Below, one piece after another: positions 12,394-21,817 of a DNA stretch of 32,000 bases. The notes below the pieces were generated by a model, which was not told where the DNA came from, made no database searches, and saw nothing but the letters and a program-made list of their open reading frames with translations. The stretch is from Formosa sp. Hel1_33_131 (GTDB lineage Bacteria > Bacteroidota > Bacteroidia > Flavobacteriales > Flavobacteriaceae). The stretch is from assembly GCF_001735745.1 (NCBI RefSeq), contig NZ_CP017260.1, forward strand, positions 1,830,001-1,862,000. The letters are read 5' to 3'. Positions within the stretch are counted from its first letter, which is position 1. The number at the start of each line of letters is the position of its first letter. The position numbers and the translations under genes are program-made.

Positions 12394-13914
<1,521 letters not shown>

Positions 13915-14005
13915 TAGAGAAAGACGACTAAAGGTAAATTGTGAAGGAAAGAAATTGTTTGTTCTCATAGCTGTTAATTAAAAAAGATACCAATAAAAAA
14001 AGTAG

Positions 14006-14079
14006 AGTCTCATAGCTCAGCTGGTTAGAGCGCTACACTGATAATGTAGAGGTCGGCAGTTCGAGTCTGCCTGAGACTA
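14006..14079 (+). tRNA. tRNA-Ile (anticodon GAU)
   Basis: Hand-folded cloverleaf. The acceptor AGTCTCA pairs with TGAGACT. The anticodon stem-loop is CTACA-CTGATAA-TGTAG and the T arm is GGCAG-TTCGAGT-CTGCC. No encoded CCA. Confidence 0.93.
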
Positions 14080-14204
14080 CTAGTTTTCACCAAGGGCAGA
14101 GAGATTTGCCTGGCTTGCCACGACGCAGGCGTGGAGACTACTAGTTTTCACCAAGGGCAGAGAGATTTGCCTGGCTTGCCACGACGCAGGCGTGGAGACT
14201 ACTA
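14073..14204. repeat. 61-nt tandem direct repeat (2 full copies plus a 10-nt third start) beginning inside the tRNA-Ile 3' acceptor strand
   Basis: GAGACTAC starts at 14073, 14134 and 14195, giving a period of 61. The unit is GAGACTACTAGTTTTCACCAAGGGCAGAGAGATTTGCCTGGCTTGCCACGACGCAGGCGTG, and the two full copies look identical by eye. Each unit contains the hairpin CCACG-acgcagg-CGTGG. Confidence 0.9.
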
Positions 14205-14294
14205 ATTTTTTTATATAATGGAAAATCTAGAAGTTGGGTTAGTTGCGAGTTTTTACTCAAAACTCATAACTAATAACTCATAACTTAAAGAAAT

Positions 14295-14368
14295 GGGGGA
14301 TTAGCTCAGCTGGCTAGAGCGCCTGCCTTGCACGCAGGAGGTCATCGGTTCGACTCCGATATTCTCCA
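14295..14368 (+). tRNA. tRNA-Ala (anticodon UGC)
   Basis: Hand-folded cloverleaf. The acceptor GGGGGAT pairs with ATTCTCC and includes the G3:U70 Ala identity pair. The anticodon loop is CTTGCAC and the T arm is ATCGG-TTCGACT-CCGAT. Confidence 0.93.
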
Positions 14369-14425
14369 CAACGGTTATTGTTACTGATATTATTTATCAG
14401 TGGTGATACGCCACACGATCATTGA

Positions 14426-14445
14426 CATATTGAAAAAGATACATG
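14426..14445 (+). other. 5' strand of the 23S precursor processing stem (pairs with 17424-17444)
   Basis: CATATTGAAAAAGATACATG is complementary to CATGTATTTATTTTCAATATG at 17424-17444, apart from a 1-nt bulge and one mismatch. The two strands bracket the mature 23S, as RNase III processing stems do. Confidence 0.6.
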
Positions 14446-14542
14446 AAACATTAGATATATTTTATATATATTTAATAGAAAAAGTAAATTAAAATTGTTG
14501 CGAGCTAGCAATAATTAGAGTAAACTCATTAAAAAGACAAAA

Positions 14543-17379
<2,837 letters not shown>

Positions 17380-17423
17380 GGACGTTTTTTTATATTACGT
17401 TTACTCATTATTTACTAAGACAT

Positions 17424-17444
17424 CATGTATTTATTTTCAATATG
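17424..17444 (+). other. 3' strand of the 23S precursor processing stem (pairs with 14426-14445)
   Basis: See the partner feature at 14426-14445. The complementarity was read directly from the sequence. Confidence 0.6.
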
Positions 17445-17515
17445 TTAAGAAATTGTTCAGTCAGAAGGCTGAATACTGTAACGACCCTACAAATAGTAGT
17501 AAGTTACAAATAACC

Positions 17516-17623
17516 CTAAGGTGGTTATTGCAATGGGGCTCACCTCTTTCCATCCCGAACAGAGCAGTTAAGCCCATTAGCGCCGATGGTACTACATTTG
17601 TGGAAGAGTAGGTCACCGCCTTT
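17516..17623 (+). rRNA. rrf: 5S ribosomal RNA
   Basis: Conserved CCCATCCCGAACAGAGCAGTTAAGCCC and GCGCCGATGGTACT blocks. Helix I forms between AAGGTGGT (17518-) and ACCGCCTT (-17622). Ends are approximate. Confidence 0.93.
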
Positions 17624-17629
17624 TTTGAG

Positions 17630-17664
17630 AATCCCTAACAGAAATGTTAGGGATTTTTTGTTTT
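17630..17664 (+). terminator. Rho-independent terminator of the rRNA operon
   Basis: Perfect 11-bp stem AATCCCTAACA-gaaa-TGTTAGGGATT (17630-17655), followed by TTTTGTTTT. Confidence 0.85.
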
Positions 17665-17720: not shown

Positions 17721-17804
17721 CCCTCACTACCACGCTAAAGCGTGGCGGCAATGGAGCACGGACTACATGTCCGCGCTAGCGGTTTTTTGGTCAGCTTTAG
17801 CTGA
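17721..17804. repeat. String of short GC-rich hairpin modules
   Basis: Three hairpins: CCACGC-taaa-GCGTGG (17730-17745), CGGAC-tacat-GTCCG (17759-17773) and TCAGC-ttta-GCTGA (17791-17804). A T6 run sits at 17783-17788. The style matches the hairpins at 1472-1583 and in the 61-nt ITS repeat. Confidence 0.5.
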
Positions 17805-17946
17805 ATTTGCTACGTGATTGTATAAGATTGGTTGCTTTGTTTAAGCAATAAAGTTAGTAAATAATTACAGACAAAGAAAATCCGCGAGGATTTTCGTAAG
17901 TAAGCAAAAAGCAAGCAATTAATTTTGTACGGTGTTACCACACGTT
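17804..17946. repeat. Structured inverted-repeat element E1 (143 nt; attC-like or MITE-like), outer left arm degenerate
   Basis: The right outer arm is GTTACCACACGTT (17934-17946). The inner 15-nt arms are GTATAAGATTGGTTG (17820-17834) and CAATTAATTTTGTAC (17916-17930). The central hairpin is GAAAATCC-gcga-GGATTTTC (17876-17895). E1 is homologous to E2 along its length and has the same length. Confidence 0.65.
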
Positions 17947-17977
17947 TTTTTCTTTCAGTTTATTATACTGTTTATAT

Positions 17978-18358
17978 TTATTCATATTGTTGACATTCAA
18001 ATATTAAGTGATTCTTAATTTCGATTGGTTTAACAACAATAGAATTCAGTTTTTGATTTGGAAATCCACCAACGAGATATTTTTCAGATTCCAATTTATC
18101 CATCCATTTTAGAAACTCTTTTAGTTCAACCATTTTCACGATACAATTTTTCCATTCAGTTTTAATTAATTCTTGTGCGAATTCCAATTCTGGCCAGATT
18201 GGAATAATCATTTCGTCATCAGTTCCACAAGTGACATAATTCCCTTTTTTGTCCGCAATCAGAAAAATCTGCTCAAAATCTGCAACTTTTCTTATGAGAT
18301 ATCCATACCGTTCTTTGGACTCAAGTTTGAACACACTTTGTAATTGTTTAATATGCAT
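17978..18358 (-). CDS. DUF2750-like small cytoplasmic protein
   Basis: 126-aa ORF with an ATG start. The pattern ...IFLIADKKGNYV......IIPIWPELEFAQ.....W......VELKEFLKWMDKLE....LVGGFPN resembles DUF2750 as I recall that family. It starts 12 nt after the upstream gene ends, so an operon is likely. Confidence 0.55.
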   Translation of the reverse strand: MHIKQLQSVFKLESKERYGYLIRKVADFEQIFLIADKKGNYVTCGTDDEMIIPIWPELEFAQELIKTEWKNCIVKMVELKEFLKWMDKLESEKYLVGGFPNQKLNSIVVKPIEIKNHLIFECQQYE

Positions 18359-18370
18359 AAAAATTAGTTT

Positions 18371-18898
18371 TCAATTCAGTTTTTTATTTTTCAAAATTTC
18401 AAAACCAAAAAATCCTTTTTGAGTTTCAAATTCAACAGTTTTATAAGAATTCATTTTTTCATAAAATTTAGCATAAAATACTAATTCCTTATTTTTTCCT
18501 TCATAGTTTATTGTAAAAACTGGTTGTTTTTCGCCTGTCGAATATTTTGATCCACCTTTTATCCAAGTTCTCCTAATTATTTCATAAGATTTTTTTTCTA
18601 CATTCTGTTCCGCAAAATAATAGTTTGTAAGTATAAAAATTGAACAAACTATAAAACCAAAACCACAGATATAATGCATCAATGAATAAATGTAAAGTCC
18701 AATTCCACTATATTCATAAGTTTTTCTATAATTTTTGAAGTCAATTATAAAACTAATAATTCCAATAGTTAAAACAATTCCAATTAAAATATTTACATCA
18801 ATAATTGTGTTTCGATAAATAATTGTCTGCCAAACCATTAAAAATAAACCCAAAATAAAAATAGTAGGATAAAATATTTTTCGTTGTTTTTTCGTCAT
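18371..18898 (-). CDS. Membrane protein (about 4 TM helices plus a C-terminal soluble domain), family not recognised
   Basis: ORF-track entry 18371..18949 begins at a TTG. I place the start at ATG 18898 (MTKKQRKIFYPTIF), which leaves the E2 left arm outside the CDS. Confidence 0.6.
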   Translation of the reverse strand: MTKKQRKIFYPTIFILGLFLMVWQTIIYRNTIIDVNILIGIVLTIGIISFIIDFKNYRKTYEYSGIGLYIYSLMHYICGFGFIVCSIFILTNYYFAEQNVEKKSYEIIRRTWIKGGSKYSTGEKQPVFTINYEGKNKELVFYAKFYEKMNSYKTVEFETQKGFFGFEILKNKKLN

Positions 18899-18905
18899 TT
18901 TCGGC

Positions 18906-19048
18906 AATGTGTGGTAACGTTTTTGTATATAGTTTGTTGCGTGTTTCAAGTACCTAATTTAGCAAATACAAACCGAATAGAAAATCCGCAGGAATTTTCC
19001 AAGTAAGCGATAACTAGCAATAAATTATATACGTTGTTACCATACGTT
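18906..19048. repeat. Structured inverted-repeat element E2 (143 nt; attC-like or MITE-like), complete
   Basis: The outer arms are AATGTGTGGTAAC (18906-18918) and GTTACCATACGTT (19036-19048). Spacers are GTTTTT on one side and GTT on the other. The inner arms are GTATATAGTTTGTTG (18925-18939) and CAATAAATTATATAC (19018-19032). The central hairpin is GAAAATCC-gca-GGAATTTTC (18980-18999). E2 fills the whole gap between two minus-strand genes. Confidence 0.7.
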
Positions 19049-19050
19049 TT

Positions 19051-19539
19051 TTATTCCATTTTTTTTAATTCTGATTTTTTTACAACAATTGTATTTCCCC
19101 AAATATCTCCTAACCGTTGATTTTTATCTGTGTTTTTTATTGTTATGAATCCGATTAGTCCAAAAAAGAACATATCGATTGGGTCAAGTAAATGTCTTTT
19201 AAAAGATTGTCCAAAAGTCAGTTTTTCGTCCGTTCCGCTAAAAGTTGTATCGTCAGATGATTTTCGGATAGACACAGGTTTTAGTCCAACTAATAAATTC
19301 CCAAGTGTTGCTCCGAACCATTGCTCAAATCCGATAGTCATTATTCCCCAAAATAGCATTGGAATTAATGCAGGAAGACCATTTAAAGAAAATCCACCTT
19401 CACCGTTTGGTTCTCCAAAAGAATAGCCAAAGTAAAAAAAGAAAGCAAAGATTATAACGTAGTCAACAATTCCTGCTAAAATTCGGTCTCCAATATTTGG
19501 TTCAGTTTTAAATTTAGTAGTTAAGTTTGTTTCGTTCAT
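19051..19539 (-). CDS. RDD-family membrane protein
   Basis: N-terminal R..AG.VD motif (GDRILAGIVDYVIIFAFFF), TM helices, and the C-terminal QRLGDIWGNTIVVKK typical of RDD domains. Start placed at ATG 19539 (MNETNLTT). The ORF-track start at 19551 is a TTG. Confidence 0.7.
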   Translation of the reverse strand: MNETNLTTKFKTEPNIGDRILAGIVDYVIIFAFFFYFGYSFGEPNGEGGFSLNGLPALIPMLFWGIMTIGFEQWFGATLGNLLVGLKPVSIRKSSDDTTFSGTDEKLTFGQSFKRHLLDPIDMFFFGLIGFITIKNTDKNQRLGDIWGNTIVVKKSELKKME

Positions 19540-19550
19540 CGTTTTTCTCA

Positions 19551-19574
19551 AATGTATGGTAACTCGTTATATGG
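19551..19574. repeat. Solo left arm of the E-element family (E3 half-site)
   Basis: AATGTATGGTAAC (19551-19563) followed by tc-GTTATATGG. I could find no matching right arm further right. On the minus strand this reads GTTACCATACATTTG, which contains a TAnnTTTG-type -7 box (TACATTTG) just upstream of the RDD ATG. Confidence 0.55.
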
Positions 19575-19631
19575 AGAACAAACCTCCTGTTTATACGTCT
19601 CTATTTCCGGATAACAGGAACTTTTGTTCTC
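19574..19631. other. Two-tier hairpin upstream of the RDD gene
   Basis: GAGAACAAA (19574-19582) pairs with TTTGTTCTC (19623-31). TCCTGTT (19585-91) pairs with AACAGGA (19613-19). The apical loop is 21 nt. Confidence 0.5.
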
Positions 19632-19937
19632 GTTTATCATTTTTCATTTTTTGTATTCATAACCTTAAGTTTATAGAAATTAATTCAACAACTATGCTGC
19701 TCAATTAACTTTTAAAAACATCACATACCCACATACCACTGCGTTAATCACAGTCCTATAATATCTTACTCTAAAGTTGAATTGGTTAAAATGAAGAATC
19801 AGATATGAGGTCTAAGTCTGGGATAAATGTACTAAAAATTGTTGAACTGCTTACAAAGGTCGTTGTAAGCCCGTGGTGTCTGGTCAGATTTGCGGTGTAA
19901 ATTTTTCACTGCAACGTATTAACTGCTTGATTTATAG

Positions 19938-19964
19938 CACAAAAGAGGGGTGTTGTAGTGCCCC
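19938..19964 (-). terminator. Probable intrinsic terminator of the PLP-enzyme gene
   Basis: On the minus strand, right after the stop codon: GGGG-cactacaaca-CCCC followed by TCTTTTG. The stem is short. Confidence 0.4.
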
Positions 19965-19966
19965 AA

Positions 19967-21817
19967 TTAAATACTGGCTACAAACTCCAAAAACACTTTT
20001 TTATGTAATTCTAAATCCATCGTAGGAGACAATGAAATACGTACAATATAATCTTTGTCACCTTCTTTTGTGGTGCCTTGGGTAGAGGTGGCGGGAATGG
20101 TCCAATAGCACCCTTGTAACTGTCCATAACTCACACAAAATTTACTTTCGTTTGGGATTTTGCTAATCATTAAATTAATTAATTTAAGATTTAAACCTCT
20201 CTTGTTCGTTTCTCTTTCTGCACTAGTAGTCCCTTTGGTGGGGAGGTCTAGTGAAAACACAGAAGGGGTAAAGCCTTGCGCTGCCAAATCTTCAGACACA
20301 AAATTGATTTTTGCACTTGGTAAAGTCTCTTTTATGAAGTTGACAAAGTCTCGCGTGTTTTTATAGGCGTCCTGAATGCGTTGATTCATGGACGGCAATT
20401 GGGAGGCCAAAATTTTATATTGAAGTGCTGTTGCTTCGTTATCACAAAGTTGGAGGTGCAACTCAATCTTGCCCATCAAGGCTTCGGATTTTTTATTGCC
20501 AACAACGTAGCCCGCCGTACATTTTCCACCACTCGGAAATTTGGACCCACTGGCATACGATAGGGTACGAACGGAAGAAAGCAAGTCATCCGCTCCTAAA
20601 AAGAGAACGTTTGGACAAAAAGTTTGGTCTAAAATAAACACAGGATCGATTGCAATGTCGCCTGTTTTGGTTTTACGGACGGTACTTAATGCATTTTTTA
20701 ATTGTATCAAATCAGGCACTTCCACTCTGGGGTTGGTAGGAATTTCTGCAATGATGTAAGGGATGGCGTCTTCGCTCGCAATTTTAGCTAAGATGGTTTC
20801 AATACTTTGTACCATTTCGTTGTCGCCATCTACGGGTAAATCGACCACTTCCACATTTTCAATACAGGCCGCCACGCGTCGTGCTTGGTCATTAGTACCA
20901 CCATAACAGTTGGGAGGTACAATAAATTTGATCGCTTTTTTGGGATGCTTTTCTTGAGCATGGTGAATGAGCCCCATCATAATCGCGTATTGAACGGAAA
21001 GTCCACTAGAGCCCACAAGGGGTTTTGTAGGACTGTGGGTAATGGTTGTAATGCTTTCTAAAACCTGTGCTTTGCTGGTTTTTAGAGTGCTATTTGTTTC
21101 ATCTGAAGTAGATCCCACTAGAGTCGATAATGCTGTCAAGCAATTGACGGGTGTCATGGCGATGGTTTCTCTTCGTCGTACATGCTGAATGTCGGATATG
21201 TAGCCTTTATTTTGGTTTCCATTTACGAGTAACACACTTCCAAGCGCTGCACTGGTTTGGAGGTAAAAATCGATGTTTGGAGAATGCTCCACCTTCCAAA
21301 GTTCTTTTTGTTGTGAGATAAAAACAGTGCTGCCTTCAAATTCAGATACGACTGTTGCATTTTCAACTTGTTTTAATTCAAATTTATAGCCATAGACACG
21401 TTTTAAGACTTCGGCATCAAAAGTGGCTGGCAACTCCCCTGTATAAACAATTTGGGTGTTTTTATGGGCTAATAAATTAGTTCTTAAAATTGCCAAAACA
21501 GGAACGGTCTGTGATGAAAAACTGATAACGTTTTCTGGGTTGAGTTGATTTAAATTGGCAATGGTCCATTCCAATACACAGGACAAAGGATGTCCTAGTC
21601 GGATGTAGTCGTAAGCGGTGGGCAAGGATTGGAGTGCCGATGGATCAGAATTATGAGTTTTATACAAGGTTTCAAACTGTTCTAAAAACTGAGTTTTGGC
21701 ACCTTTTTCATCGTAAATATCCAGTCGATGGGTGGTTAGATTCAACCAATCGATTGGTAAATTTTCTAAGACTTCTTTTAGATAGTTTAGCATTTTATTC
21801 CCTTCCATAATTTTCAT
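19967..21817 (-). CDS. Cys/Met-metabolism-type PLP-dependent enzyme (cystathionine gamma-synthase/lyase superfamily) with a long N-terminal extension
   Basis: Three features fit the fold-type I Cys/Met PLP family: IAEIPTNPRVEVPDL (compare ETPTNP), a candidate PLP lysine in ASGSKFPSGG, and GSSGLSVQYAIMMGL (compare SSGMAA). The start is uncertain: the ORF-track start at 21835 is a TTG, and in-frame ATGs occur at 21817, 21808 and 21793. Confidence 0.7.
   Translation of the reverse strand: MKIMEGNKMLNYLKEVLENLPIDWLNLTTHRLDIYDEKGAKTQFLEQFETLYKTHNSDPSALQSLPTAYDYIRLGHPLSCVLEWTIANLNQLNPENVISFSSQTVPVLAILRTNLLAHKNTQIVYTGELPATFDAEVLKRVYGYKFELKQVENATVVSEFEGSTVFISQQKELWKVEHSPNIDFYLQTSAALGSVLLVNGNQNKGYISDIQHVRRRETIAMTPVNCLTALSTLVGSTSDETNSTLKTSKAQVLESITTITHSPTKPLVGSSGLSVQYAIMMGLIHHAQEKHPKKAIKFIVPPNCYGGTNDQARRVAACIENVEVVDLPVDGDNEMVQSIETILAKIASEDAIPYIIAEIPTNPRVEVPDLIQLKNALSTVRKTKTGDIAIDPVFILDQTFCPNVLFLGADDLLSSVRTLSYASGSKFPSGGKCTAGYVVGNKKSEALMGKIELHLQLCDNEATALQYKILASQLPSMNQRIQDAYKNTRDFVNFIKETLPSAKINFVSEDLAAQGFTPSVFSLDLPTKGTTSAERETNKRGLNLKLINLMISKIPNESKFCVSYGQLQGCYWTIPATSTQGTTKEGDKDYIVRISLSPTMDLELHKKVFLEFVASI

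Follow-up and report, generated by a model that had tools for sequence, protein, structure and literature searches.

The window analysed, a 32,000-nt stretch of the genome of Formosa sp. Hel1_33_131 (contig NZ_CP017260.1, positions 1,830,001 to 1,862,000), carries just downstream of an rRNA operon a short array of two gene cassettes that has lost its recombinase. Cassette A (about 18918-19562) includes a single gene (19051-19539, minus strand; ATG at 19537-19539) encoding a 162-aa RDD family membrane protein (Pfam PF06271, 1.9e-20). Cassette B (about 17813-18917) includes two genes, also on the minus strand. The first of these (18371-18898), with its ATG at 18896-18898, 6 nt past the left box of element E2, encodes a 175-aa protein that gave only a weak sub-threshold match to cytochrome b561 and is probably a membrane protein; the second (17978-18358) encodes a 126-aa protein of the DUF2750 family (Pfam PF11042, 5.7e-24). 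Each cassette ends in an attC-like site on the plus strand, E2 (18905-19049) for cassette A and E1 (17800-17947), the last site of the array, for cassette B. A solo left box, AAATGTATGGTAAC (19550-19563, plus strand), marks the 5' end of cassette A and is followed by an array head remnant with an attI-like junction (19564-19660, minus strand), recognised from a sequence alignment (A2) and a weak tblastn match to the tail of the recombinase. A scan of 7 ORFs between 17978 and 26143 found no recombinase domain. With its two full sites, its solo box and no integrase nearby, the array is like CALIN elements, which are defined by at least two attC sites and the same lack of an integrase. A scan for sigma-70-like promoters, which does not cover Bacteroidota promoters, showed no excess in the region.

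Both elements are composed of the same parts. In E2, the left box CAATGTGTGGTAAC (18905-18918), which lies beyond the crossover and so is the property of cassette B, and the right box GTTACCATACGTTT (19036-19049) enclose two spacers (18919-18924 and 19033-19035), an inner stem (18925-18940 with 19017-19032) and a central hairpin (about 18979-18999). The corresponding parts of E1, likewise given for the plus strand, are a degenerate left box with a terminal TAC in place of AAC (17800-17813), the right box GTTACCACACGTTT (17934-17947), spacers at 17814-17819 and 17931-17933, an inner stem formed by 17820-17835 with 17915-17930, and a central hairpin at 17876-17895.

Scripted pairing of the arms on the plus strand gave 12 Watson-Crick (WC) and 4 G:T pairs for the inner arms of E1, 14 WC and 2 G:T pairs for the inner arms of E2, and 11 WC pairs, 2 G:T pairs and one other mismatch, at the outermost position, for the outer arms of E2. 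As none of these three arm pairs contains an A:C pair, the original observation that all eight transition-type mismatches are G:T on the plus strand was confirmed. The earlier hand counts were reproduced for the outer arms of E2 (WC and G:T) and for G:T pairs throughout, and fell one terminal WC pair short in the inner stems. The outer arms of E1 are essentially unpaired (4 WC, 2 A:C and 1 G:T of 14). Folding of both strands, which had been proposed as a check, favoured the plus strand in both elements, with RNA parameters (-39.3 versus -27.0 kcal/mol for the minus strand in E1, -40.6 versus -30.3 kcal/mol in E2) as well as with DNA parameters (-19.0 versus -16.5 and -14.2 versus -10.7 kcal/mol, respectively).

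An even split of transitions had been taken as the expectation without strand preference. This overstated the independence of the eight positions, given that most of the bias is fixed in the element family. Four of the eight G:T pairs occupy positions that are always or often G:T across the family (pairs 42:149 and 48:144 in E1, 43:148 and 48:144 in E2, numbered as in alignment A1), and another corresponds to box position 11, where T:G is fixed. Of the remaining three, two occur in E1 alone, and one arises because the two boxes of E2 derive from two different cassettes.

The family is large. About 14 copies or fragments of the element were detected in this genome by nhmmer, and blastn with E1 found matches of about 75-86% identity in 98 of 151 sampled Flavobacteriaceae genera. 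Alignment A1 includes 71 copies, with E1 and E2 represented by rows L030:1486-1658 and L030:2591-2760, respectively. The 16-bp inner stem is paired in 99.3% of the cells of this alignment and forms a continuous helix in most copies, a 1-nt bulge in the R'-L' arm being seen in one subfamily. Nine of its pairs changed on both sides, and its covariation score of 0.302 was reached in none of 500 shuffles (0.140), while partners slid out of register gave 0.072 at most; the covariation that had been proposed as a check is therefore present. Several variants of the stem occur within one genome (rows L062 and L063), hence it is the pairing that is conserved and not the sequence.

In the 68 distinct copies of the alignment, the paired columns comprise 1363 WC, 232 G:T and 11 A:C cells. 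G:T cells outnumber A:C cells in 16 columns, with the reverse in 2, and across the family the asymmetry is real. An equal division of mismatches between the strands in further copies, named beforehand as an outcome that would speak against strand bias, was thus not seen overall and was seen at the freely varying box positions 4-9, where the few mismatches are 7 G:T and 7 A:C. In a set of 114 distinct copies, the inner-stem cells are 1500 WC, 282 G:T and 2 A:C, with sporadic states accounting for 11 G:T and 2 A:C. In the small inner hairpins 61 cells are of G:T type and 10 of A:C type. Pair 48:144 is G:T in all 68 distinct copies of A1 and in 113 of 114 overall, 42:149 in 64 of 68 and 30:158 in 64 of 64, and box position 11 is T:G in 87% of the pairs formed between a cassette's own ends. 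Most of the G:T excess is therefore contributed by wobbles that are fixed, at five or six positions, and a lesser part by positions that vary. As judged by folding energy, the G:T-rich or bottom strand, which runs antisense to the cassette genes, is the more stable in 110 of 114 distinct copies with DNA parameters, by a modest margin of about 2.8 kcal/mol (means -21.9 versus -19.1 kcal/mol), and in 112 of 114 with RNA parameters (-45.1 versus -35.4 kcal/mol).

Each fixed G:T could reflect descent, or bases read by the recombinase, rather than folding energy. Taken to its end, this would mean that the fixed G and T are read as sequence, in the duplex or in the hairpin, and that their location on one strand is an accident of descent from a single ancestral site rather than a result of selection for a fold of that strand. 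The invariant positions do supply most of the excess, the variable box positions are unbiased, and the motif GTTGC...GCAAT atop the inner stem resembles, in our reading, an inverted R-box core with one C→T change. However, every fixed wobble is on the same strand, and G:T is also favoured where columns vary, in the column tally, in the sporadic states and in the hairpins alike. Moreover, free covariation of neighbouring pairs is seen inside a single genome and speaks for a structure being recognised, and an account based on sequence reading with accidental strand bias seems quite unlikely.

The boxes define the cassettes as units. Comparison of each right box with the left box of the element that follows on that strand gave WC pairs at 6.4 of the 7 variable positions (n = 100), as against 2.44 of 7 for the two boxes within one element (n = 120) and 2.52 for random pairs. 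In the window, the right box of E1 pairs with the left box of E2 through 12 WC and 1 G:T pairs, and the right box of E2 pairs with the solo box at 19550-19563 through 13 WC and 1 G:T pairs of 14. Both window cassettes are therefore units in the sense applied to integrons, with ends that are complementary to each other. As read from the sequence, such complementarity of a cassette's own ends is the classical signature of integron cassettes and places the putative crossover at AAC/GTT. This core of the box does not vary, and in the copies shown it is flanked by an R; the remainder of the 7-mer consensus RYYYAAC/GTTRRRY is not kept. An unpaired spacer and a variable tip are likewise present in the element family.

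The same comparison bears on whether E1 and E2 could be non-autonomous transposable palindromes of MITE, REP or BIME type that land at the 3' ends of genes. Dispersed, imperfect palindromes of about 150 nt beside stop codons would suit such elements, as would the frequent location of copies at contig ends in draft genomes. Movement of the whole element as a unit predicts, however, that its own ends match, and the boxes of one element are unrelated; long one-directional arrays behind a recombinase gene also do not fit. The reading was rejected, being exceedingly improbable for elements whose boxes match across the intervening gene and not within the element.

Gene orientation is equally regular. 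At every locus in this genome, the genes adjoining the copies are on the strand opposite to the G:T-rich one, the outer edges of the 2.5-Mb array excepted, and the stop codon of the upstream gene lies at the right box or within about 10 nt of it. In 43 of 101 copies the stop codon begins 2-4 nt ahead of the box. The arrays agree in this with integrons, whose cassettes are promoterless, mostly single-gene and of one orientation, each with an attC site right after the stop codon and a folding strand antisense to the genes.

The T-runs that had been noted after each element are present, T7 at 17945-17951 and T6 at 19047-19052 (both plus strand), and had led to the suggestion that E1 and E2 may be long-stem terminators of an RNA made in the direction of the rRNA operon. 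More generally, the plus strand might be transcribed, with the elements acting as intrinsic terminators or as insulators that block read-through from the operon or shield the cassettes from antisense transcription. Folds that tolerate G:U are typical of RNA, the plus-strand RNA folds have z-scores of -4.0 (E1) and -5.0 (E2), and a T-run of at least 5 directly follows the element on the G:T-rich strand in 65% of 114 copies, and on the other strand in none. However, each run begins inside the conserved 14-nt box, which ends in GTTT and supplies the first three T. In T7 these three T close the right box of E1 on its outer side, the stop codon lying about 30 nt further. In T6 the box end (19047-19049) is followed by one T and by the complement of TAA at 19051-19053, the stop codon of the RDD gene, and the run continues into a stop-codon complement in many other copies too. 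Within arrays, the outer stem that precedes the run pairs at chance at its variable positions (2.4 of 7), leaving the run about 17 nt from the nearest stable helix. A terminator scan found no plus-strand terminator at E1 or E2, and the rRNA operon has a strong terminator of its own upstream, at 17627-17658. It had also been remarked that the central hairpin might, on the minus strand, terminate the cassette genes; of the two elements, the consensus scan flagged only the hairpin of E1. In Rfam, which contains no attC family, nothing was found on E1 or E2, at the gathering threshold or with E up to 10. The context of the elements in relatives is not an rRNA operon but an array that follows a recombinase gene, or a plasmid, and no rRNA gene is annotated within 7 kb of those on Tenacibaculum plasmids. 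The T-runs are thus not supported as terminators and are a by-product of the box end GTTT and T-rich sequence next to it. With a run derived from the box, outer pairing at chance and no plus-strand match in the scan, the terminator reading was rejected, and a role of the elements in plus-strand RNA has very little probability.

Selection might instead act at the RNA level on the gene strand, where A:C mismatches would weaken the mRNA hairpin and let transcription and translation continue into the cassettes that follow. That the opposite strand folds better would then be a side effect, and such selection could also act together with DNA folding. The top strand is indeed about 10 kcal/mol weaker with RNA parameters, none of the 114 copies has a top-strand T-run of at least 5, and read-through would matter for promoterless cassettes that are co-oriented behind a recombinase. 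The relief would be small, however, given that RNA of the top strand retains a very stable fold, with a mean of -35 kcal/mol. The purpose could be served equally by transversion mismatches, as these weaken both strands, yet they are rare (24 cells versus 232 G:T), and the near-universal G:T at pair 48:144 suggests a specific geometry. Relief of mRNA hairpins is therefore an unlikely source of the asymmetry.

In four relatives (G006, G089, G117 and G119), one-directional arrays of 7-40 elements start 1-2 kb behind a recombinase gene. The array-adjacent enzyme is an Xer-like tyrosine recombinase of 370-400 aa that is related to XerA, XerC and XerD, nearer to XerA by sequence, lacks the integron-integrase insert, has at its N terminus an additional domain of about 95 aa and is encoded in the same orientation as the cassettes. 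Of 401 Bacteroidota genomes sampled, 92 have homologues that include the N-terminal domain. No conservation was seen for the ORF that follows the recombinase gene, which is therefore cargo rather than a platform gene. Formosa sp. Hel1_33_131 has a single recombinase of this type (C1:1281665), to which the G089 enzyme is 52% identical. It is encoded 0.57 Mb from the window, and the window's array may therefore be inert. A true integron integrase was not found in this genome, where the best match to the model TIGR02249 scored 210 bits (cut-off 265), and no match above the cut-off was obtained in 5 relatives. The match in this genome is split at model positions 178/239, and in the G089 recombinase 17 residues stand for residues 183-242 of IntI4 (2a3v).

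The attI-like junction of the window reads CATATAAC-G-A, then GTT. The form CATATAAC-N-A followed by GTT is common to the three usable rows of alignment A2, namely the solo site of the window, the recombinase locus of this genome and G089, the rows for G006, G117 and G119 being left out of account. In the window the junction is preceded by a head hairpin that aligns with the last codons of the recombinase gene and the hairpin downstream of it, in this genome and in G089. In addition, a candidate recombinase pseudogene at 19660-19966 gave only a marginal tblastn match (E 0.006, with a stop inside) and a short tail match. The tail and attI remnant at 19564-19660 suggests, as far as can be told from sequence, decay of a former recombinase platform. 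Further copies of the array-head sequence occur elsewhere in this genome.

We conclude, with a probability of roughly 0.7, that E1 and E2 are attC-type sites ending two promoterless cassettes of an integron-like capture system of Flavobacteriaceae, and that the plus strand is the one that folds. Of the two readings offered earlier, folding of bottom-strand single-stranded DNA as in attC recombination is backed by the covariation, the box comparison, the gene orientation and the recombinase adjacency, while the terminator reading was not upheld. The same evidence supports the underlying proposal that the plus strand, which is the non-coding one, is under selection to fold. The site would most likely be used as a folded single strand, as in integrons, with a 14-bp outer (R-type) stem ending in AAC/GTT, the presumed point of strand exchange, an unpaired spacer of 6 nt against 3 nt, the 16-bp inner stem, and a tip that is variable but contains a conserved hairpin. 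The substrate would be single-stranded DNA rather than a cruciform or RNA, and the plus strand, as the folding 'bottom' strand antisense to the cassette genes, would presumably be the strand that is cut. The five or six fixed G:T pairs and the sporadic surplus would permit a full hairpin on this strand, with A:C mismatches at the same places on the gene strand. Such thermodynamic and geometric asymmetry would contribute to strand choice and therefore to the orientation of cassette insertion, with the wobbles being what the recombinase or the fold may use to tell the strands apart. The capture system is presumably still active. As the recombinase is without the domain that binds extrahelical bases, the analogy with integrons may fail in detail. 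A further proposal, which we regard as tentative and somewhat doubtful, is that the invariant G:T wobbles and the asymmetric spacer encode strand choice, and hence the orientation of captured genes, in place of that domain. If true, wobble-coded strand choice would be a second solution, independent of the flipped-out bases of integrons.

Integrons recombine the bottom strand, which is antisense to their cassette genes and whose folding is biased by sequence features (PMC6393395). The sites described here resemble integron attC sites and CALIN elements in that an imperfect palindrome follows each promoterless gene, its outer boxes end in AAC/GTT with the crossover there, and the two ends of a cassette complement each other. 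Also shared are an unpaired spacer that separates the outer from the inner stem, a variable tip, and a folding strand that is antisense to the genes and forms the better fold of the two strands. As in sedentary chromosomal integrons, an attI-like junction lies beside a tyrosine recombinase gene and arrays may hold tens of cassettes. However, the recombinase is without the insert of roughly 45 residues found in integron integrases, has the additional N-terminal domain and is encoded in the direction of the cassettes. At about 145 nt the sites are long, the outer stem measuring 14 bp and the inner one 16 bp, and their sequence is about 75-86% conserved across many genera. They have no canonical extrahelical bases, which in attC lie on the R''-L'' arm of the bottom strand and set strand choice, the asymmetry being given here by the fixed G:T pairs and the 6-against-3 nt spacer, and the extra unpaired spacer bases are on the R'-L' arm, opposite to that of classical attC.

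Among published systems, the closest relative found was that of the rAID-1 clusters (recombinase-associated acquired interbacterial defence; Ross et al. 2019, bioRxiv 10.1101/471110), which occur in Bacteroidales and so likewise in the phylum Bacteroidota. By its published description, a XerD-like recombinase lies 5' of a one-directional array of small low-GC genes, the criteria being more than 44% identity to BF9343_RS08045 and at least 2 co-oriented low-GC genes following, and the repetitive intergenic sequences are called reminiscent of integrons (10.1101/471110). Compared by this description only, rAID-1 differs in belonging to gut Bacteroidales and in carrying immunity genes, and the parts of the description consulted report no folded-site anatomy, crossover point or strand asymmetry. 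Xer/dif systems (IMEX, pdif modules) share recombinase kinship, and the folded site resembles their two arms of about 11-14 bp with a short centre; dif-type sites are, however, 28-bp duplexes and not 145-nt hairpins with covarying stems and cassette-specific boxes. Rho-independent terminators, which have a stable G+C-rich stem with a U-tract right behind it on the transcribed strand, are similar in the order of hairpin and T-run on the plus strand, but the T-run is here part of a recombination box, with or without a stop-codon complement. A search of the literature for attC sites or integrons in Flavobacteriaceae or Bacteroidota, and for G:T wobbles in attC, found no description of them; the papers bearing on the subject were those on rAID-1 and on attC strand bias.

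Surveys describe Bacteroidota as almost free of integrons, and that conducted with IntegronFinder 2.0 reported no such arrays in Bacteroidetes except one Salinibacter integron (PMC9024848), yet most sampled Flavobacteriaceae genera carry the cassette system. The strand asymmetry is the clearest sequence evidence for function as a folded single strand and also tells which strand folds. This opens the testable question of how an Xer-like recombinase without the integron-specific domain recognises the hairpin and picks a strand. For annotation, the cassettes can be recognised by 14-nt boxes, the AAC/GTT crossover and genes antisense to the G:T strand. For the window itself the practical outcome is ordinary, a two-cassette remnant without its own recombinase and T-runs that are not terminators.

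The GC skew of the genome is weak. An origin near 1.12-1.26 Mb was inferred from the skew minimum and the direction of both rRNA operons, and dnaA lies apart from it, at 0.457 Mb. With this origin the bottom strand would be the lagging-strand template at 6 of 8 loci, an observation that was not relied on. Plasmids of the fish pathogen Tenacibaculum finnmarkense are among the carriers of the cassette system.

The rRNA operon of the window (16S, two tRNAs, 23S and 5S; plus strand, 12394-17624) ends at a strong plus-strand terminator, identified by the terminator scan at 17627-17658. Downstream of it lie three small minus-strand genes, encoding a DUF2750 protein (17978-18358), a protein of 175 aa whose only match, to cytochrome b561, is weak (18371-18898) and a member of the RDD family (19051-19539). 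Two imperfect palindromes, each about 148 nt long, punctuate these genes: E1 (17800-17947) and E2 (18905-19049). A solo left-end box, found without the full element, is located at 19550-19563. Another repeat family, with units of about 150 nt that include an ACATACC-C-ACATACC motif, is represented at 19692-19850; copies occur elsewhere in the same genome (own-genome coordinates, C1: 473214, 616436, 617161, 1418670, 2353192, 2354440 and others) and in congeneric species, and the window copy matched no Rfam family and showed no obvious ORF.

Scripted pairing of the arms on the plus strand gave 12 Watson-Crick (WC) and 4 G:T pairs for the E1 inner stem, 14 WC and 2 G:T for the E2 inner stem, and 11 WC and 2 G:T for the E2 outer arms, with no A:C in any of the three. 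The hand counts of the original prediction, in which every non-WC pair was a plus-strand G:T, were thus reproduced to within one terminal pair. The E1 outer arms, which had been left out of that count, are mostly unpaired and include 2 A:C. The T7 and T6 runs were likewise found at 17945-17951 and 19047-19052. When both strands were folded, the plus strand was the more stable for each element, both with RNA parameters (E1, -39.3 vs -27.0 kcal/mol on the minus strand; E2, -40.6 vs -30.3 kcal/mol) and with DNA parameters (E1, -19.0 vs -16.5 kcal/mol; E2, -14.2 vs -10.7 kcal/mol).

About 14 copies or fragments of the element are present in the own genome, grouped in small clusters, and blastn with E1 returned matches in 98 of the 151 genera sampled from the same family; identities were about 75-86%, and the matches often lay at contig ends. 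E-type elements are also carried by two Tenacibaculum finnmarkense plasmids, CP116298.1 (four copies, 104896-119029) and CP116296.1 (two copies), where they adjoin small hypothetical genes and themselves bear no annotation. In four related genomes (G006, G089, G117 and G119), arrays of co-oriented copies, 7 to about 40 in number and 0.5-1.5 kb apart, begin 1-2 kb behind a gene for a tyrosine recombinase of 370-400 aa. An alignment of 71 copies from about 30 genera (A1) defined the order as a 14-nt left box with an AAC end, a 6-nt spacer, a 16-bp inner stem with its interior, a 3-nt spacer and a 14-nt right box with GTT at its start; the interior is variable but holds a conserved GAAAATCC...GGATTTTC hairpin. 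Selection on a fold, as originally proposed, is supported by these copies: 99.3% of the cells of the inner stem are paired, 9 of the 16 pairs show changes on both sides, and the covariation score of the stem is 0.302, as compared with 0.140 for shuffled alignments (0 of 500 reach the observed score) and at most 0.072 for slid partners. Several compensated stem variants occur together in one array with one recombinase (A1 rows L062 and L063), and hence the conserved feature is the pairing and not the identity of the bases, which favours a folded site over one that is bound as a duplex.

If crossover occurs at the AAC/GTT core, the boxes of one element come from different cassettes, and it is the two ends of one cassette that should match. 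At the 7 variable positions, a right box and the left box of the element that follows it on the same strand formed 6.4 WC pairs (n = 100), vs 2.44 for the two boxes within one element (n = 120) and 2.52 for random box pairs (n = 5000), which is the pattern predicted for integron-type sites crossing over at AAC/GTT. Within the window, the right box of E1 forms 12 WC and 1 G:T of 14 with the left box of E2, and that of E2 forms 13 WC and 1 G:T with the solo box. A MITE- or REP-type element is excluded by this box matching. Genes abutting the copies in the own genome are carried by the strand complementary to the G:T-rich one at all loci, the 2.5-Mb array being an exception at its outer edges, and the upstream gene ends at, or no more than about 10 nt from, the right box; in the relatives, the stop codon is TAA in 86 of 101 copies, and in 43 of the 101 it begins 2-4 nt ahead of the box. 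Given this gene orientation, the G:T-rich strand, which is the plus strand in the window, corresponds to the 'bottom' strand of integrons, the strand that recombines (PMC6393395). As judged by covariation, the cassette test and gene orientation, the first of two readings originally offered, single-stranded folding of the bottom strand as in attC recombination, is most likely right. At C1:2104970-2105493, overlapping small ORFs of 77 and 96 aa terminate 6 nt ahead of an E-type element and look like a cassette-borne toxin-antitoxin-type pair. Cassettes of this type are common in chromosomal integrons.

Across 114 distinct copies, the bottom strand was the more stable in 110 with DNA parameters (means -21.9 vs -19.1 kcal/mol) and in 112 with RNA parameters (means -45.1 vs -35.4). 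Their inner-stem cells comprise 1500 WC, 282 G:T, 2 A:C and 36 other states. Over all A1 helices, 97.9% of cells are pairable on the bottom strand vs 84.3% on the top strand, with G:T exceeding A:C in 16 columns and the reverse in 2. Most of the excess is fixed family-wide, and variable positions contribute a smaller surplus. In A1 column numbers, pair 48:144 is G:T in all 68 distinct copies (and in 113 of the 114 of the larger set), 42:149 in 64 of 68 and 30:158, adjoining the core, in 64 of 64; T:G is found at 35:156 in 51 of 68 and at box position 11 in 87% of cassette-own pairs, and A:T and G:T alternate at 43:148. Sporadic inner-stem states number 11 G:T vs 2 A:C and the small hairpins hold 61 vs 10; the freely varying box positions 4-9 are unbiased (7 vs 7). 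A wobble kept for so long beside covarying neighbours is not a half-finished compensation, and the alignment suggests that the fixed wobble is a G opposite T maintained by selection. Five of the eight wobbles originally counted lie at fixed or recurrent family positions and two occur in E1 alone; the last, in the E2 outer arms, is an accident of the hybrid junction and exists only because the E2 boxes derive from two cassettes with box sequences one transition apart. What is added here is the anatomy of the strand bias, which consists of a few invariant wobbles and is not a diffuse trend. Strand choice in classical attC sites is ascribed to extrahelical bases together with the unpaired spacer and the variable tip, and their bottom strands reach the canonical shape more readily on folding (PMC6393395); the attC papers searched contain no mention of G:T wobbles.

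The second reading originally offered was a plus-strand RNA, made in the rrn direction and ending at long-stem terminators. A run of at least five T directly follows the element on the bottom strand in 65% of the 114 copies, and on the top strand in none. The run opens with three T that belong to the conserved box, as its outer end (GTTT); these pair with AAA at the opposite end of that cassette. In E2 and many other copies the remaining T are the complement of the box-abutting TAA stop (19051-19053 in E2). The E1 stop is found about 30 nt past the run, and the run there extends into T-rich sequence. The stem preceding the T-run in the arrays pairs at chance level at variable positions, the nearest stable helix being about 17 nt off, and the terminator scan found no plus-strand terminator at E1 or E2. 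An RNA terminator in the rrn direction was rejected on these grounds, and the reading built on it is hence not supported. The central hairpins were also proposed as possible terminators of the cassette genes on the minus strand; of the two, only that of E1 was flagged by the scan.

On the minus strand, the segment 19553-19660 aligns with the final codons and the immediate 3' flank of the recombinase gene, both in the own genome and in G089, and a shared head motif, CATATAAC-N-A followed by GTT, is located exactly at the start of cassette A, which carries the RDD gene. This alignment is in agreement with a short match of the recombinase tail in tblastn. Together, they suggest that the window holds a decayed platform, in which the recombinase gene is gone, an attI-like junction is retained and two cassettes remain. 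On the minus strand, 19819-19968 has a marginal translated match to recombinase residues 125-173 (one stop, 31% identity, E 0.006); situated between the array head and the PLP-enzyme gene, it may also be left over from the deleted gene. The head module of recombinase tail, hairpin and attI-like junction (19553-19638) also occurs without a recombinase gene at four own-genome sites (C1:2164105-2164368, 2505937-2506013, 1764145-1764220 and 1344501-1344549), and one copy heads the 2.5-Mb cassette array; these modules look like orphan array heads.

The own genome has a single recombinase gene of the array type (C1:1281665-1282828), 52% identical over its full length to the G089 protein. Within C1:1281665-1283570, it is followed by an attI-like junction and one 199-aa gene, at the end of which lies a shorter, divergent attC-like hairpin with the distal GTT core seemingly lost; the segment is a minimal platform with one cassette. 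The best sequence matches of this type of recombinase are archaeal XerA (5hxy, 160 bits) and a XerC-like protein. The match to IntI4 (2a3v) is split, the G089 protein having 17 residues in place of IntI4 residues 183-242, the integron-specific insert. The own-genome TIGR02249 score of 210 bits is under the 265-bit cut-off. An additional N-terminal domain of about 95 aa is conserved across genera, and homologues with this domain were found in 92 of 401 sampled Bacteroidota genomes. Since the recombinase does not pass the test that defines integron integrases, the system is not classed as an integron; by analogy, it would work like one, sharing discrete cassettes, the AAC/GTT core and an antisense folding strand but differing in its recombinase without the IntI insert. 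Only In0 elements and one complete integron, in Salinibacter, are listed for Bacteroidetes in the IntegronFinder 2.0 paper (PMC9024848), and no published description of such arrays in Flavobacteriaceae was found. E1 and E2 are members of a widespread, apparently undescribed integron-like system.

The cumulative GC-skew minimum of the own genome lies at about 1.12 Mb, with dnaA at C1:456907 and 16S genes at C1:496961-498480 and 1842394-1843913, the two rRNA operons running in opposite directions. The skew minimum and the opposed operons place the origin near 1.1-1.3 Mb, far from dnaA. With the origin placed there, the strand that folds at the cassette sites would be on the lagging-strand template at six of eight loci, opposite to the placement in the Vibrio cholerae chromosomal integron.
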